Positions 1 through 5,144 are shown, numbered from the stretch's first letter. The stretch is 5,144 nt of DNA from a virus (IMGVR_UViG_2690316344_000011), one strand, 5' to 3'. The notes: a model not told the origin generated them from the letters alone. Numbers and translations are program-made.

Positions 1-373
1 CCCGAATCGTCGCCTCCACGTGAGACTTCATAAAATCTTCAGCGGCAGAATCCGTGGGCTGAAAAAGCAGACTGTTTCGGGATTTATGCTCAATAAAATA
101 CCCGACCACCCCCAGCAACATCTTTGTATAGCCAACACGGGCAGATTTAATCAGGTTAACCGTGCGAACCTGGTCGTTACCCATACAGTTCATAATGGCG
201 ATCTGGAATGGCAGCGTTTTCCATTCGCCCTCACCATATGAAGATTCTTTAGGCAGATAATAATTTTGATCAGCCCATTCAACTGCCGTCATTGGTACAA
301 CCCTGACCAGAGGCTGCAGCGCAACCGAAACGGCAGCCATCATATTATTCAGTTGTTGCTCTGATATATTCAT
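1..373 (-). CDS. A: Terminase large subunit (lambda gpA-like), 5' portion only; the gene continues past the window start
   Basis: Minus-strand frame is open from ATG at 373..371 to the window edge. Translation begins MNISEQQLNNMMAAVSVALQPLVRVVPMTAVEWADQNYYLPKESSYGEGEWKTLPFQIAIMNCMGNDQVRTVNLIKSARVGYTKMLLGVVGYFIEHK, matching the lambda gpA N-terminus as I recall it (MNIS, TAVEWADANYYLPKES, KSARVGYSKMLLGV, YFIEHK). The start overlaps the 3' end of the small-subunit gene by 29 nt in another frame, as Nu1/A do in lambda. Absent from the ORF track because it has no stop inside the window. Confidence 0.9.
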   Translation of the reverse strand, partial: MNISEQQLNNMMAAVSVALQPLVRVVPMTAVEWADQNYYLPKESSYGEGEWKTLPFQIAIMNCMGNDQVRTVNLIKSARVGYTKMLLGVVGYFIEHKSRNSLLFQPTDSAAEDFMKSHVEATIR

Positions 374-854
374 CGAGTAAATCCGGTAATTTATCCCCTG
401 CCCGCGCACACTGATTTGCCCCCTTAGCAATAAGGGTTTTCAGATGGTCAAGATGGCGCGGTGTTAAATCAGGAAACTGTCGCTGCATGGATAAAGGGAT
501 GGAATCAAGCGTACTGGATAACGCCATTGCCAGCTTACTGAGGGCAAAAATACAGAACCCGGTGTCAATAAGTTTTCCTTTTGACACCTCATTTTTTAAC
601 TGCTGTGTAACAGCCTGTTCTGCTGTCAGTTCCCATCTGGCAATAAGCAATTTCTCCTCATAGTCGTCTTCGCTATCGCCATCAGGCACATCGTTTTTAC
701 TTCTCCTCAGATACGATATGTAAAAATCGCGCCAGGCATCCAGATCCAGTTGCCCTCGCTTATTCGATATCGGGGCACCCGGCAATTTCTGCAATCTGCG
801 AAGCTGGCGATCGGTCAGACTTAAATGCCTGGCAACTTCAGTCTGCGTAGCCAC
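345..854 (-). CDS. nu1: Terminase small subunit (lambda Nu1-like DNA-recognition subunit)
   Basis: 169-aa ORF with GTG start at 854..852 preceded by GAGGTGAGGA. C-terminal half (FCIFALSKLAMALSSTLDSIPLSMQRQFPDLTPRHLDHLK...LLDEYI) parallels lambda Nu1 as recalled (FCTFVLSRIAGEIASILDGLPLSVQRRFPELENRHVDFLK...LLSEYI). Lies immediately downstream of the cos site and is followed by the overlapping large-subunit gene. Confidence 0.9.
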   Translation of the reverse strand: MATQTEVARHLSLTDRQLRRLQKLPGAPISNKRGQLDLDAWRDFYISYLRRSKNDVPDGDSEDDYEEKLLIARWELTAEQAVTQQLKNEVSKGKLIDTGFCIFALSKLAMALSSTLDSIPLSMQRQFPDLTPRHLDHLKTLIAKGANQCARAGDKLPDLLDEYIRATTE

Positions 855-901
855 TCCTCACCTCGCAAAAACTCTCACCTCACAATCACAACAAAACCGG
901 T

Positions 902-912
902 CATGTCCGGTT
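902..912 (+). repeat. 11-bp repeat CATGTCCGGTT, copy 1 (candidate small-subunit binding element, R1-like)
   Basis: Exact 11-mer; direct repeat of the copy at 932..942, 30 bp apart. Confidence 0.6.
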
Positions 913-931
913 TACATGTCTGTTTTTTGTT

Positions 932-942
932 CATGTCCGGTT
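932..942 (+). repeat. 11-bp repeat CATGTCCGGTT, copy 2 (R2-like)
   Basis: Exact 11-mer, same orientation as copy 1. A partial copy CATGTC lies at 915..920. Confidence 0.6.
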
Positions 943-989
943 CACAGAAGACCTGTTTTTATATTTTTCATATAGTTAACTTGAAGAGA

Positions 990-1000
990 AACCGGACATG
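990..1000 (-). repeat. 11-bp repeat CATGTCCGGTT, copy 3 in inverted orientation (R3-like, nearest cosN)
   Basis: Plus strand reads AACCGGACATG, the exact reverse complement of the other two copies. It is separated from copy 2 by a 47-bp A+T-rich spacer (943..989). Confidence 0.6.
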
Positions 1001-1037
1001 GATCCCGGAAAATTTTCATAAATAGCGAAAACCCGCG

Positions 1038-1049
1038 AGGTCGCCGCCC
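1038..1049 (-). other. cosN: 12-nt cohesive-end sequence identical to lambda (GGGCGGCGACCT on the minus strand)
   Basis: Plus strand 1038..1049 is AGGTCGCCGCCC, the reverse complement of the lambda cohesive end. The adjoining bases on both sides also match the lambda left end (CGCGGGTTTTCGCTATTTATGAAAATTTTCCGG) and right end (CGACAGGTTACG) as recalled. Confidence 0.85.
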
Positions 1050-1256
1050 CGTAACCTGTCGGATCGCCGGAAAGGACCCACGAAAATGATAATAATTATC
1101 ATCTACATGAGGTTTATCACGACATGTGTGTACGCCATCAAACCACGAGAAATAATCAATTATTACGCAGGTATCGTATTAATTGATCTGCATCAAATTA
1201 GCGTAAAAGCAACTTCAGATAATACAAATCAGCAACACTGAATACGGGGCAACATT
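1050..1256 (-). other. Segment resembling the lambda genome right end, including a cosQ-like GGGTCCT at 1073..1079 (minus-strand reading)
   Basis: Reverse complement of this segment reads close to my recollection of the last ~200 bp of lambda (TGTTGCCCCGTATTCAGTG...GATGCAGATCAATTAATACGATACCTGCGT...GGGTCCTTTCCGG.GATCCGACAGGTTACG). The cosQ position is assigned by that analogy only. Confidence 0.55.
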
Positions 1257-1481
1257 ATGTCATCAAAGAACAGAACCCGCAGAACAACAACCCGCAACAT
1301 CCGATTTCCAAACCAGATAATTGAACAAATTAACATCGCTCTTGACCTGAAAGGTTCAGGTAATTTTTCAGCGTGGGTTATTGAAGCCTGCAGAAGAAGA
1401 TTAATTAATGAAAAACATGCTCAATTTGTACCCAACAAAGACAAACACGACCAGAGCACCTGTTCAGACAGGTTTACTTAA
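1257..1481 (+). CDS. Small conserved phage protein, homolog of the ORF at the lambda right end; probably the YlcI/YnfO-type (DUF3950) family
   Basis: 74-aa ORF with ATG at 1257. MSSKNRTRRTTTRNIRFPNQIIEQINIALDLKGSGNFSAWVIEACRRRL is near-identical to the lambda right-end ORF as I recall it (MSTKNRTRRTTTRNIRFPNQMIEQINIALEQKGSGNFSAWVIEACRRRL). Same position next to cos, followed by a terminator. The family name is from memory. Confidence 0.7.
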   Translation: MSSKNRTRRTTTRNIRFPNQIIEQINIALDLKGSGNFSAWVIEACRRRLINEKHAQFVPNKDKHDQSTCSDRFT

Positions 1482-1562: not shown

Positions 1563-1877
1563 TTAGCATTTTTTTGACCGCGCGTTTCCGGACGTATTCT
1601 GTTCTCCTGTCCCTTTATATCGTCGGAATACCCGCCGCTCTTCAAATCCCATTCCCAACTCAGAATGTAGTCTGTTGACCGCTTGTTTTATTTCGGTCAG
1701 GTTCACCGGTGAAACCGGAGTCCGGCGCGCCTTACGCAAACACTCTGCTCGTTTCTGTGCCGCCACTTTTCTTTTCTGGTCATCACTTAGCTGTACCATC
1801 ACTTTTGCCCATCGTTCAGCTGCTCTCCGGTACAGTCCTTTTTTCTCCAGACATTCTGCCACGTGATCATGTAGCAT
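1563..1877 (-). CDS. PerC-family (Pch-like) transcriptional regulator; accessory gene
   Basis: 104-aa ORF with strong RBS (GGAGG, 6-nt spacer, ATG at 1877). The N-terminal motif ECLEKKGLYRRAAERWAKVM resembles the conserved PerC/Pch motif (LE.KG.WRRAA.RW) as I recall it. Has its own terminator and an A+T-rich upstream region, and sits between Rz and cos where lambdoid phages carry accessory genes. Family assignment unverified. Confidence 0.65.
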   Translation of the reverse strand: MLHDHVAECLEKKGLYRRAAERWAKVMVQLSDDQKRKVAAQKRAECLRKARRTPVSPVNLTEIKQAVNRLHSELGMGFEERRVFRRYKGTGEQNTSGNARSKKC

Positions 1878-2342: not shown

Positions 2343-2810
2343 TCACGGTATACACTGGGTACGGATATATTCCTGTGCTCCTTCCAGTTGCTTCTGCATT
2401 GCCATCAGCCGTTCTCTGAGGATGAAATAATCCCGTTCAGCGGTGTCTGCCAGTCGGGGGCCGGTTGCATTATCCACGCCGGAGGTGCCGGTGGCTTCAC
2501 GCACGGTACCGGAGCAGGTGGCGTTGATCCGCAGGCGCTTACGACCAGCGGCAACATCAGCACGCAGAGTTTCATTTTCAGCTCTCGCATCGGCTAATTC
2601 CCTCGAGTATCTGGCATCAAGTGCAGCGACATCACGCTGGCGTACCTGCATATCAGTAATTGTCACGTTCGCCAGCTTCAGCTCACTGGCTTTTTTATCG
2701 CGTTGCGCTTTGTAGGTAATGGCGTTATCGCGGTAATGATTCAGCCCCAGACTAAGCACACCACAGGCTACCAGCAGGACAATAATCACCACACACAGAA
2801 CACGGTTCAT
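2343..2810 (-). CDS. Rz: Rz i-spanin (inner-membrane spanin subunit)
   Basis: 155-aa [73 protein letters not shown] and [22 protein letters not shown] closely match lambda Rz as recalled. N-terminal TM segment present. ATG at 2810 is preceded by GAGGGGGAT. Confidence 0.92.
2405..2590 (-). CDS. Rz1: Rz1 o-spanin (outer-membrane lipoprotein), embedded in the +1 frame of Rz
   Basis: 61-aa ORF wholly inside Rz in a different frame. [15 protein letters not shown] lipoprotein signal followed by the proline-rich [27 protein letters not shown], matching lambda Rz1 as recalled ([27 protein letters not shown]). Confidence 0.88.
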
Positions 2811-2817
2811 ATCCCCC

Positions 2818-2949
2818 TCACCCCACCAGCCATGACAAAGTTAAGACGCGCCAGGCAGTGGAAAAGCAAATAGCAACCAGCATTAGTGAAAATGAAATGC
2901 CGACGATTACACAGAGGATCTTCGCCAGCGTTATGAGCTTGTCTGACAT
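2818..2949 (-). CDS. Hypothetical 43-aa single-pass membrane peptide immediately upstream of Rz
   Basis: Found by manual translation; below the ORF-track size cut-off. ATG at 2949..2947 preceded by GAGGA with a 6-nt spacer. Product [43 protein letters not shown] has one long hydrophobic segment. Stop TGA (2820..2818) lies inside the G-rich RBS of Rz, 7 nt before the Rz ATG. No homolog recognised. Confidence 0.45.
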
Positions 2950-2961
2950 GCTTAATCCTCT

Positions 2962-3144
2962 TCACGATTTCAACGCAATGACCAGTTTTGCCAGCCCATA
3001 CAGCATCGGAGACACAGCAATACCGACCGCCACCCACTTAATAGCAAAAGCCAGCGCTCTGCTGACGTCATCAGTTACAGGCGCTTTCAGTTCAAGGCCG
3101 TTTTTCATAGTCAATCTCAACAGAATTCGTTTATACTTTCCCAT
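2962..3144 (-). CDS. Hypothetical 60-aa protein with basic N-terminus and hydrophobic C-terminal segment
   Basis: Internal ATG (3144..3142) of the 86-aa track ORF 2962..3222, preceded by AAGGGAG. The 26 codons upstream are encoded by the terminator hairpin and are taken as a spurious extension. Product MGKYKRILLRLTMKNGLELKAPVTDDVSRALAFAIKWVAVGIAVSPMLYGLAKLVIALKS. E. coli-like codons. Followed 12 nt later by the 43-aa ORF. No homolog recognised. Confidence 0.5.
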   Translation of the reverse strand: MGKYKRILLRLTMKNGLELKAPVTDDVSRALAFAIKWVAVGIAVSPMLYGLAKLVIALKS

Positions 3145-3177
3145 GTTCTCCCTTGCCTTACTCAAGGTCAGAAACAC

Positions 3178-3216
3178 AAAACCCCGTTTGCGGCCAACAA
3201 ACGGGGTTTTACTTTT
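3178..3216. terminator. Strong bidirectional intrinsic terminator hairpin between the endolysin gene and the small-ORF module
   Basis: Perfect 13-bp stem AAAACCCCGTTTG (3178..3190) with CAAACGGGGTTTT (3198..3210) around a 7-nt loop CGGCCAA. T-rich sequence follows on both strands (TTTTACTTTT on plus, TTTTGTGTTTC on minus). Confidence 0.65.
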
Positions 3217-3299
3217 ATTCACTTAGTTTTTGCCAGTTCGCAGGATTTCGTGTTATCCGCCAGTGTGAGCAAACCGCATTTTTCAGCAAAATATTCTGC

Positions 3300-3833
3300 T
3301 TATCTGTCAATTCCCCAGCACGCCAGCGCGCTCTCCTGGTCACGCCGTGAAACCTGACCGTAGCAGTTGTTTGAGCGAATACGGCAGTCTCTGCCACCGT
3401 CCTTAATCCACCAGCGAATCGCCTCACACGCTCCCCTGCGATCACCTGCATTAATTCGTCTGTAAAACGTCGACGGGAAACACTTACCGGGACCAATGTT
3501 GTACGGACAGAATGACGCGATCCCCGCTTTCTGGGGTTCGGTCAGCGGTACTTTAATATTGCGCTCCACCCACTCCAGCGCCTTATCACGTTCAATGGCG
3601 TTAACCTGGTCGCATTTTTCCTTCGACAACTTCATGCCCGGAACGACAGGTTTACCATCCACCAGGATGGCACCGCGGCAGATGGTCCAGATACCCGCAC
3701 CATCACGGTATGCCGTGGTGTGGTTACCTTCTTTTTCGTCAAGAAACTGGTCGAGGATTTCAGGCGCAGACGCCCCTGCACCAATCAGCGCCAGAACGGC
3801 AGCCGACAGGCCGTATCTGATTTTTGCGTTCAT
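3300..3833 (-). CDS. R: SAR endolysin, T4-lysozyme-like muramidase (glycoside hydrolase family 24)
   Basis: 177-aa ORF. N-terminal Gly/Ala-rich weakly hydrophobic segment (YGLSAAVLALIGAGASA) typical of a signal-anchor-release domain, followed by the catalytic E-x8-D-x5-T arrangement (EGNHTTAYRDGAGIWT). Matches the pairing with a pinholin upstream. No obvious Shine-Dalgarno before ATG 3833. Confidence 0.9.
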   Translation of the reverse strand: MNAKIRYGLSAAVLALIGAGASAPEILDQFLDEKEGNHTTAYRDGAGIWTICRGAILVDGKPVVPGMKLSKEKCDQVNAIERDKALEWVERNIKVPLTEPQKAGIASFCPYNIGPGKCFPSTFYRRINAGDRRGACEAIRWWIKDGGRDCRIRSNNCYGQVSRRDQESALACWGIDR

Positions 3834-3883
3834 GGATATTTATCAGGGTTTATCGATTTCAAATCCCTGGATATGTTAAGTCT

Positions 3884-4228
3884 TCAGGCCAGCGGTGGAG
3901 TCTTCAGAGAACCAGTAATTATTCCCGGTAGTTTTCCTCTGTAGGTTATCAACACATCCTGCGCCTCTAAAATTACGGGGCGCTTTTCCGGCAACGGACC
4001 ATCCCCTTCACATAACCCGGCAGCAACATCCATGAAAAACTGCTTCGCCTGCTTTTTCGCCTCAGCTTCGTAAAACTCCAGCGTGGCACCTTCAGTACGG
4101 TCAAGACTAATCGCCACATCTGGCAACAACAGTGACGGATACCCACCAATTTCCAGTGCCACAGTAACAGTAATCTTATCCGGGTAATTATTTATCCCTT
4201 TAACACCCAGTTCGTATTTTTTCTTCAT
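3884..4228 (-). CDS. Hypothetical protein between holin and endolysin; position matches the YdfR-like (DUF1327) gene of Qin-type lysis cassettes
   Basis: 114-aa ORF. ATG at 4228 preceded by GGGGAG with an 8-nt spacer that overlaps the holin stop codon. The family assignment rests on gene order recalled from E. coli Qin (essQ-ydfR-rrrQ), not on recognised sequence motifs. Confidence 0.7.
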   Translation of the reverse strand: MKKKYELGVKGINNYPDKITVTVALEIGGYPSLLLPDVAISLDRTEGATLEFYEAEAKKQAKQFFMDVAAGLCEGDGPLPEKRPVILEAQDVLITYRGKLPGIITGSLKTPPLA

Positions 4229-4232
4229 CGCT

Positions 4233-4439
4233 TTACTCCCCCCGCGCCGCCTTACGACGGTCCTCTCTGATTTTGAAATACAGGTTAGTCAGATACGTCA
4301 GCAGGCCAAACAGCAGACTCCCCAGCACACCGATTGCCACCCACTGGGACGGAGAGACTTTGTCCAGCAGCTGCAGTAACCAGTATCCCGTCCCCACCGC
4401 TGACGTGGTGTATGACACACCTGTTGTGATTTTTTCCAT
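4233..4439 (-). CDS. S: Class II pinholin, phage 21 S-type
   Basis: 68-aa [71 protein letters not shown] is near-identical to the S21 pinholin as recalled (...[40 protein letters not shown]). Two TM segments and a charged C-terminus. Confidence 0.92.
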
Positions 4440-4740: not shown

Positions 4741-5064
4741 TTATGCTGCCGGTGCATTTATCTCCAGCATCAGACTTTCTATCTCAACGCCATACGCTGC
4801 ATTTTTTGTAACATCCGTCAGCGTCAGCGCATTCAGTCCCAGTGTCAGACTGTCTTTTATAACCTGGAATGCCGGGCCAGCCACTCCATTCAGTTTCGGA
4901 GTAACCGTGGCACTGCCGGCGGTGAACACCAGCTCCAGCGTCTGCCAGTCGTTACCGTAATCGCCGAACTCCCCCAGCTTCGTGTTTCCGGCTTTCCTGT
5001 GATGCATCAGATTCACCCTGCCGTCAGTGGTCTGAGTGAAGTACGACATCAGGAACGGGAGCAT
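4741..5064 (-). CDS. Hypothetical protein (107 aa), accessory gene directly upstream of the lysis cassette; possibly the 3' remnant of a larger frameshifted gene
   Basis: ORF with E. coli-like codon usage (CTG-rich). In-frame stop at 5106..5104 limits N-terminal extension. A second minus-strand frame is open from the window edge (5144) to about 5027 and overlaps its 5' end. No family recognised. Confidence 0.5.
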   Translation of the reverse strand: MLPFLMSYFTQTTDGRVNLMHHRKAGNTKLGEFGDYGNDWQTLELVFTAGSATVTPKLNGVAGPAFQVIKDSLTLGLNALTLTDVTKNAAYGVEIESLMLEINAPAA

Positions 5065-5144
5065 CCGTATACAGATAAATCCCCAGCCCGAACTGATTGT
5101 TGGTCAGTGCGCCTGACAGGCGGAACTTACAGGTCAGTCTGCCG

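Follow-up and report, generated by a model that had tools for sequence, protein, structure and literature searches.

Here we present a packaging site from an E. coli prophage which, on the sequence comparisons described below, is very probably a complete lambda-like cos with a packaging specificity of its own, read by a small terminase subunit (TerS) of the MATQ type (MATQxEVAxHL...); its cosQ-to-R1 module recurs on islands, which it may serve as a packaging site. The site was identified in a 5,144-nt stretch of DNA, referred to throughout as the window, and is organized around an 11-bp box, CATGTCCGGTT, exact copies of which lie between a cosN-I2 segment identical to that of lambda (1005-1049) and the TerS gene (854-345, minus strand).

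The window is part of an E. coli lambdoid prophage, is 99.9% identical to E. coli strain D1, is also matched in O145 and O157 genomes, and is inverted with respect to the lambda map. Read along the minus strand, the lysis genes are followed by a gene of the PerC family, a YlcI/YnfO gene on the plus strand, cos, TerS and the start of TerL (Table 1). A plus-strand ORF of 66 aa at 825-1025, whose counterpart in phage PhiR12_1 is annotated as hypothetical, was rejected as a gene because of its position across cosB. The stretch at 1920-2040 is A-rich and of low complexity, and the best genome matches differ there by about 37 nt.

Table 1. Coordinates of the features discussed; positions are those of the window unless an accession is given, and bp numbers are counted from bp 1 (window position 1049), the first base of the cohesive end
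Feature	Position	Strand	Remarks
TerS gene (small terminase, Nu1-like)	345-854	-	169 aa, GTG start; from the ORF list; RefSeq 'terminase small subunit'
Coding region of the TerS DNA-binding domain (aa 1-56)	687-854	-	Short strand, helix 4-10, helix 15-22, wing, helix 38-54
TerS codon 20	795-797		Covaries with box position 4 (905, 935, 997)
Whole cos site (cosQ, cosN, I2, R3, I1, R2, R1)	895-1079	-	From sequence and comparison
Fourth, imperfect box CATGACCGGTT	895-905	-	One mismatch; overlaps R1; forms palindrome 894-913
R1-equivalent box CATGTCCGGTT	902-912	+	Exact; orientation of R2, start 30 bp from R2
R2-equivalent box CATGTCCGGTT	932-942	+	Exact; inverted relative to R3, starts 58 bp after R3, 100% complementary
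Candidate IHF site (I1 equivalent) TTTCATATAGTTA	966-978	+	Inside spacer 943-989; bp 72-84
R3-equivalent box CATGTCCGGTT	990-1000	-	Exact; bp 50-60 from the cohesive end
Conserved cosN-cosB segment	1005-1037	-	Identical to lambda; includes I2-like TATGAAAATTTTC (1008-1020)
cosN cohesive end GGGCGGCGACCT	1038-1049	-	Reverse complement identical to lambda and 21
cosQ GGGTCCT	1073-1079	-	24-30 bp upstream of the cohesive end, distance as in lambda
YlcI/YnfO-family gene	1257-1481	+	Between cos and the lysis cassette
PerC-family regulator gene	1563-1877	-	Between cos and the lysis cassette
Lysis cassette	2343-4439	-	Also holds two small ORFs
Rz (lysis cassette)	2343-2810	-	With embedded Rz1-like ORF 2405-2590
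Lysozyme (lysis cassette)	3300-3833	-	177 aa, hydrophobic N-terminus
YdfR (lysis cassette)	3884-4228	-	
Class II holin (lysis cassette)	4233-4439	-	
SASA-family esterase gene	4741-5144	-	Upstream of the lysis cassette in the direction of phage transcription
CFT073 simple cos	L489 = NC_004431.1 1360001-1390000, cosQ 27528	+	AGGTGACACCACCACCAC at bp 48-65, no repeats
CFT073 second cos	NC_004431.1 ~1388338-1388150 (L489 28338-28150)	-	Full window module

A first-pass annotation of this DNA, made from the sequence alone, had described a mosaic: cohesive ends and flanks of lambda with the terminase-binding region replaced. The left-end side bears out the first half of this description, since the match runs for 45 nt with zero mismatches (1049 down to 1005) and is then lost as abruptly as had been stated, the next 100 nt being 26% identical, which is the level of chance. 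On the right-end side cosQ is present as claimed and 29 of the 30 bases of the cosQ-to-cosN stretch match lambda; the flank out to 1260, at about 89% identity, is similar rather than identical. By homology with lambda, nicks would be expected at 1049|1050 and 1037|1038. The 45-nt block consists of cosN and I2, which are near-universal in lambda-like cos sites, and is therefore by itself no evidence of a recent lambda recombinant; the 1005-1037 segment is kept in all members of the family described here as well as in lambda, 21, phi80 and Gifsy-1, and cosQ in every related locus, distant ones included. Alignment to lambda, 21 and related cos regions yields a shared cosN-I2 with separate box types. 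The boxes do differ from those of lambda, as the mosaic reading required; that they are a foreign replacement did not stand, because CATGTCCGGTT can be aligned with the lambda and 21 boxes, given a 3-bp shift and one inserted base, and is better regarded as their diverged homologue. The shift places the start of CATGTCCGGTT 3 bp nearer to cosN than its aligned counterparts in lambda and 21, and since a 3-bp change in the spacing of cosN and box is deleterious in lambda (PMC9026076), the geometry of the protein must differ here.

Three exact copies of CATGTCCGGTT are found in the window against an expectation of 0.01, and that number was reached in 0 of 200 shuffles; all three lie where the first-pass annotation had put them. 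Between R3 and R2 is the A+T-rich spacer that it had proposed to be bent by IHF, 47 bp long and 72% A+T compared with 53% for the whole window. The candidate IHF site within it matches the consensus WATCAANNNNTTR at 11 of 13 positions, with two mismatches, the same number as lambda I1 (AAACATTAAGTTA; same strand, bp 74-86, 11/13); I1 of phage 21 is on the same strand, also at bp 74-86, and scores 12/13. R3 of lambda and of 21 is located at bp 50-65 (PMC9026076; for 21 also by the annotation of M81255). The box positions, the position of the candidate I1 and the inversion of R2 relative to R3 therefore support the proposed lambda-like R3-I1-R2-R1 layout with different recognition sequences. The parallel breaks down at R1, which is oriented opposite to that of lambda and 21: in lambda, phi80, 21 and Gifsy-1 alike, R1 has the orientation of R3 (PMC9026076), and the exact R1 of the window does not. 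The only copy in the R1 region with the orientation of R3 is the imperfect one that overlaps it. This fourth box is probably not essential, being less conserved among close haplotypes, altered in one member of the wider set (L023) and absent from the island modules described below. A further copy at 915-925 (CATGTCTGTTT, two mismatches) was considered as a fifth box and rejected, as it is unconserved in PhiR12_1 and other relatives.

To follow the boxes across relatives, loci were gathered by protein rather than by repeat, using exact-protein look-ups and scans seeded with more distant homologues. The first scans, of viral and metagenome sequences, gave only near-identical copies, and a scan of genome contigs gave six distant loci. 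Comparison of 66 distinct close haplotypes by MAFFT alignment revealed zero variation at all 11 positions of R3, an invariant R1 core (CCGGACAT) and rare R2 variants, set among heavily polymorphic spacers. The wider set, aligned without gaps and anchored on R3, comprised 14 N-terminal subtypes of TerS at 60-99% amino acid identity from E. coli, Klebsiella, Salmonella, Citrobacter and Enterobacter. Conservation of the repeats in phages with the same type of small subunit, on which the first-pass annotation had made its reading depend, held in 14 of 14 subtypes: the offset from R3 to the inverted R2 is 58 bp in every one of them, and the core TCCGGTT is invariant, within an R3 pattern of [CGA]A[TC][GT]TCCGGTT. 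Five blocks are kept across the subtypes, namely cosN, TTATGAAAATTT, R3, the IHF consensus and R2, and a perfect IHF consensus occupies the same place in L011, L013, L017 and L022. That the repeats are a chance occurrence or a neutral local duplication without function, a reading that has only the small size of the element in its favor, is effectively excluded by the shuffles together with this strict conservation across five genera and unrelated flanks.

R1 does not share in this constancy, since in relatives its position and orientation vary or it is absent. Its reversed orientation in the window and its lack of conservation across the family mean that the three-site model may reduce to R3 and R2. 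The cohesive-end sequence itself varies in seven loci (L013, L014, L023, L015, L017, L021 and L022; for example GGGGGACGGCAGAC, GGGGGTCGTAGGAC and GGGGCGACGCGC), with cosQ, I2 and the R boxes conserved in L013 and the others, and L013 and L023 share a different cosN-I2 segment, CGCGCAAAAACGCGC.

Distant members of the family, at 33-49% identity, have a simpler arrangement, in which one box or two overlapping tandem boxes (TTCCGGTTCCGGTT) are found directly upstream of the start codon. These simple-cosB members are Aeromonas phage phiARM81ld, Pseudomonas LPPA33 and metagenomic contigs. The record of phiARM81ld starts with a lambda-like GGGC... end and has the box CATTTCCGGTT at bp 52-62. By locus, the boxes are at bp 52-68 (L491), at 139-155 (L490) or about 26 nt before the start codon (L309-L332), and there is no inverted R2.

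The protein expected to read these boxes is TerS. Its N-terminus, MATQTEVARHLSLTDRQLRRLQK, is a predicted divergent winged-HTH DNA-binding domain, and its C-terminal two thirds are Nu1-like. The Pfam family PF07471 (Phage_Nu1, E=1e-18) covers residues 49-150 only, and the tblastn alignments of TerS to lambda, 21, N15, phi80 and Gifsy-1 begin only at about residue 59-73; both confirm the earlier statement that the N-terminal domain is divergent. A search of PDB sequences with TerS returned nothing useful. The structural model of residues 1-56 is confident (pLDDT 84.6), has the order strand, helix, helix, wing, helix, and superposes on lambda TerS and on RppC. The confident winged-HTH model, together with the lack of any N-terminal BLAST alignment, indicates a domain with the fold of lambda TerS and a different sequence. 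The predicted recognition helix consists of residues 15-22 (DRQLRRLQ), and MAFFT aligns DRQLRRLQK with IRTIQNWQE of lambda and PRTIERWQS of 21. Lambda TerS binds DNA weakly in vitro, which has made its biochemistry hard (PMC6739421).

Within this helix, residue 20 covaries with a single base of the box. In all nine of the Arg20 N-terminal types, box position 4 is G (xxxG-TCCGGTT); where residue 20 is Asn, Asp, Ser, Thr or Lys and a box was found, it is T in all 26 types (xxxT-TCCGGTT). Two further phages fit the same pairing. The loci compared (L005-L332) represent few independent lineages, and one Arg20/G case, L193, is inside the distant clade, which gives the pairing at least two origins. 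The aligned pairs elsewhere are Asn21 with T at bp 56 in lambda, Arg21 with G in 21, and Ala or Gly with A in the Gifsy-1 type. Genetic work has implicated residues 20 and 24 of lambda and 21 TerS, and bp 56 and 59 (PMC4669245); the covarying residue 20 described here aligns with lambda residue 21, not with the published 20 or 24. We hypothesize, from these alignments, a rule common to lambda-like TerS families whereby the residue aligned to lambda Asn21 would read the base aligned to bp 56, Arg going with G, Asn or Asp with T, and Ala or Gly with A. In any case, the covariation makes site recognition by a small winged-HTH terminase domain directly accessible to study.

The covariation also bears on whether the boxes are bound by some factor other than TerS, such as an Rpp-like protein or a transcription factor, or form hairpins governing terminase expression. 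Terminator-like hairpins are indeed predicted on the minus strand, where the palindrome at 894-913, followed by TTTTGTTGTG, and a short hairpin at 992-1008 over R3 score as terminator-like on the transcribed strand, and the module adjoins rppA in the pathogenicity island EcCICFT073. Between 800 and 1300, three terminator-like sites directed toward the terminase genes were found against 0.4 expected; the palindrome is unconserved in relatives. We consider this explanation highly improbable, given that there is no sigma-70-like promoter within 800-1300, that the palindrome is not kept, and that box position 4 follows a residue of the TerS helix. Furthermore, the boxes are fixed relative to cosN and not to the start codon: the distance from box to cosN is constant and that from R3 to the TerS start codon ranges from 98 to 148 nt. 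Finally, the prophage site has no rpp gene, and RppA acts on cos1, not cos2 (PMC6739421).

A census independent of the repeats was made by scanning IMG/VR for the conserved I2 segment only, a search blind to cosB, which returned 106 lambda-like cos-like sites. Wherever a downstream TerS was readable, box type and TerS helix type corresponded one to one, with no exception. Thus the lambda-type box CGTTTCCGTTCT goes with helix RTIQNWQ, the 21-type box CRTGTCGGTAC with RTIERWQ, the Gifsy-1-type box CAGATCCGTTCT (L366, L401 and L408) with RTITAWQS or RTITGWQS, and a rare form with no named equivalent, CATGTCAGTTCT (L434), with RTIDRWQT. The window-type box, ATGTCCGGTT, was found at 23 sites and is paired with a MATQ-type TerS in 14 of the 14 loci that have such a gene. 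The further pairings indicate that there may be more specificity classes than the literature searched lists. In one locus, L423, the window-type cos has downstream of it, in place of TerS, an ORF which we take to resemble the N-terminus of the lambda gpC protease; this locus looks like a prophage remnant from which the terminase-to-portal region has been deleted.

Five census loci with the window box have no downstream TerS (L367, L374, L410, L413 and L450). Encoded on these terminase-less island loci are capsid E-like and D-like proteins, SSB, a primase/replicative ATPase and a protein of 137 aa that is related to the C-terminus of the protease; for EcCICFT073, c1499 has been reported as a capsid protein and c1500 as a head decoration protein (ISME J paper). 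L367 and L413 also encode a 144-aa protein identical to the product downstream of the simple cos of CFT073, and it carries the RppC DNA-contact residues R21, T22, T23, R25, W27, K29 and K41 (listed in PMC9026076 and PMC6739421). The YlcI/YnfO and PerC genes are present on the CFT073 island as well.

In the CFT073 island, two convergent cos sites flank rpp/rppA. The simple cos is directly upstream of rpp, whose start is near bp 102, and fits the Rpp-dependent site of Murialdo and Feiss. The second site has cosQ, cosN, I2, R3 as CATGTCCGGTT, I1, R2 and the R1 core, without the imperfect fourth box; it differs from the window in that it belongs to a terminase-less island, adjoins rppA and converges with the Rpp-dependent simple cos. 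Phage and islands (the five loci and CFT073) are homologous only from cosQ to just past R1, and this confinement delimits a functional unit and is a strong argument for counting the boxes as part of the packaging signal.

By sequence, the second CFT073 cos is probably the cos2 of Fillol-Salom 2018/2019, an assignment of cos1 and cos2 that follows the description by Murialdo and Feiss of a cos directly upstream of rpp, without repeats and with the rpp start near bp 102. According to the published accounts, no phage cosB was identifiable at either island cos, and cos2 is dispensable for transfer by lambda or phi80 (PMC6092414, PMC6739421). RppA acts on cos1 and not cos2 (Fillol-Salom 2019, PMC6739421), and the helpers tested for the island were lambda, phi80 and a 21-type prophage only (Fillol-Salom 2018/2019). 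Prophage 4 of CFT073 is of the 21 type. We infer that the second island cos serves MATQ-type helpers, and its sequence suggests that EcCICFT073 may use MATQ-type phages directly. Under this proposal, cos1 would be used through redirection of lambda-, phi80- and 21-type TerS by Rpp, and the second cos, copied directly from the native site of a MATQ phage, would allow the island to be packaged without redirection. The second cos, which is given no role in the published accounts (PMC6092414, PMC6739421), would in this way receive a candidate explanation. We advance the idea of two island cos sites for two helper classes tentatively, and together with the Asn21/bp-56 reading rule of lambda we rate it at slightly under an even chance.

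In the mechanism that we propose for the window cos, the TerS winged HTH would read CATGTCCGGTT by means of helix 15-22, with Arg20 contacting the G at box position 4. IHF would bend the A+T-rich spacer at the candidate site, bringing the inverted R3 and R2 opposite one another, where a dimer of the TerS DNA-binding domain would bridge them. R3 would then set the register for nicking of cosN by TerL, as in the lambda model, and R1 would be an accessory site that adds affinity. Since box and helix both differ from those of lambda/phi80, 21, Gifsy-1 and N15, such a phage should package its own DNA and not theirs, despite the shared cosN and cosQ. The presence of the cosQ-R1 module on terminase-less EcCICFT073-like islands would, in turn, open these to packaging by the MATQ-type class of phages.

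This type of cos is common. Of 5426 complete E. coli genomes, 1185 have the cosB segment (1911 places), which is unannotated among the matches listed, and 1165 have the segment coding for the TerS DNA-binding domain (1840 places). About 21% of complete E. coli genomes, O157, O145 and O111 included, have the window cos type, and among lambdoid prophages it is the dominant type in enterohaemorrhagic strains; 53 genomes contain the island-type rpp-cos segment. Phages PhiR12_1 to _5, for which the records list laboratory strains of E. coli as host, have the same cosB and TerS (99.4% aa). The only literature matches to the box sequences were unrelated primers and motifs, and literature searches on cosB with O157 or prophage, and on PhiR12, returned no description of a site of the window type. 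In the literature searched, the known lambda-like specificities are lambda/phi80, 21, N15/Monarch and Gifsy-1, to which the CATGTCCGGTT type would add one. Packaging specificity decides which DNA enters the capsid, and so decides which prophages, cosmids and pathogenicity islands a helper mobilises.

Among the known systems, phage 21 (M81255) is one of the closest points of comparison. It has identical cosQ and cosN, R3 at bp 50-65, I1 at bp 74-86 and an inverted R2 about 58 bp off, and its TerS likewise combines an N-terminal winged HTH with a Nu1-like C-terminus and pairs Arg at the aligned position with G. Its R1 and R2 boxes (TTTCATGTCGGGCCTT) have CATGTC..GG in common with CATGTCCGGTT. 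These shared letters, with the equal R3-R2 spacing and the like position of the candidate I1, are what could be said for regarding the window site as merely a drifted 21-type cosB, still used by a 21-type terminase and without separate specificity. We judge this very unlikely in the face of the differences. Where 21 has CRTGTCGGTAC/CATGTCGGnCCTT, and a specificity of C(A/G)TGTCGGnaCTT with RTIERWQS, the window has CATGTCCGGTT, with an inserted C, a different 3' half (CCGGTT vs GGnCCTT) and a position 3 bp nearer to cosN. Its R1 is of opposite orientation, 30 bp from R2; its TerS has 169 aa vs 182, cannot be aligned by BLAST with 21 gp1 over residues 1-55, and has DRQLRRLQK vs PRTIERWQS. Moreover, the two box types are distinct classes in the census, where each has a TerS type of its own and mixed pairs number zero, and lambda and 21, with no more than three differences between their boxes, are mutually exclusive (PMC4669245).

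Compared with lambda and phi80, the window has the same overall layout cosQ-cosN-I2-R3-I1-R2-R1, with I1 as a candidate, and the same first 45 nt; the C-terminus of TerS is about 46% identical, and the model of an IHF bend and a dimer of DNA-binding domains would apply to the window cos. Lambda and phi80 have the boxes CGTTTCCtTTCT with helix RTIQNWQE (the specificity being CGTTTCCtTTCT with RTIQNWQ(E/D)), and lambda R1 is oriented as R3; the window has neither that box nor that helix and no similarity past bp 45. Nor does it have the N15/Monarch or Gifsy-1 boxes (GAGGTTGTTGTT and CAGATCCGTTCT) with their cognate helices, GAGGTTGTTGTT being R3 of N15, whose TerS helix is unrelated to that of the window. 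With three repeats and a TerS gene, it also differs from the Rpp-dependent cos1 type of PICIs. The N15/Monarch pair is nevertheless like the MATQ family in one respect, in that a single TerS/box specificity occurs with both simple and complex cosB: enteric MATQ members have R3-I1-R2(-R1), and phiARM81ld, LPPA33 and L309-L332 are simple. The window has the cohesive end, cosQ, R3 position, inverted R2 and adjacent TerS gene of a lambda-like cos, and sequence comparison supports placing the CATGTCCGGTT cosB as a further specificity class of this known system.
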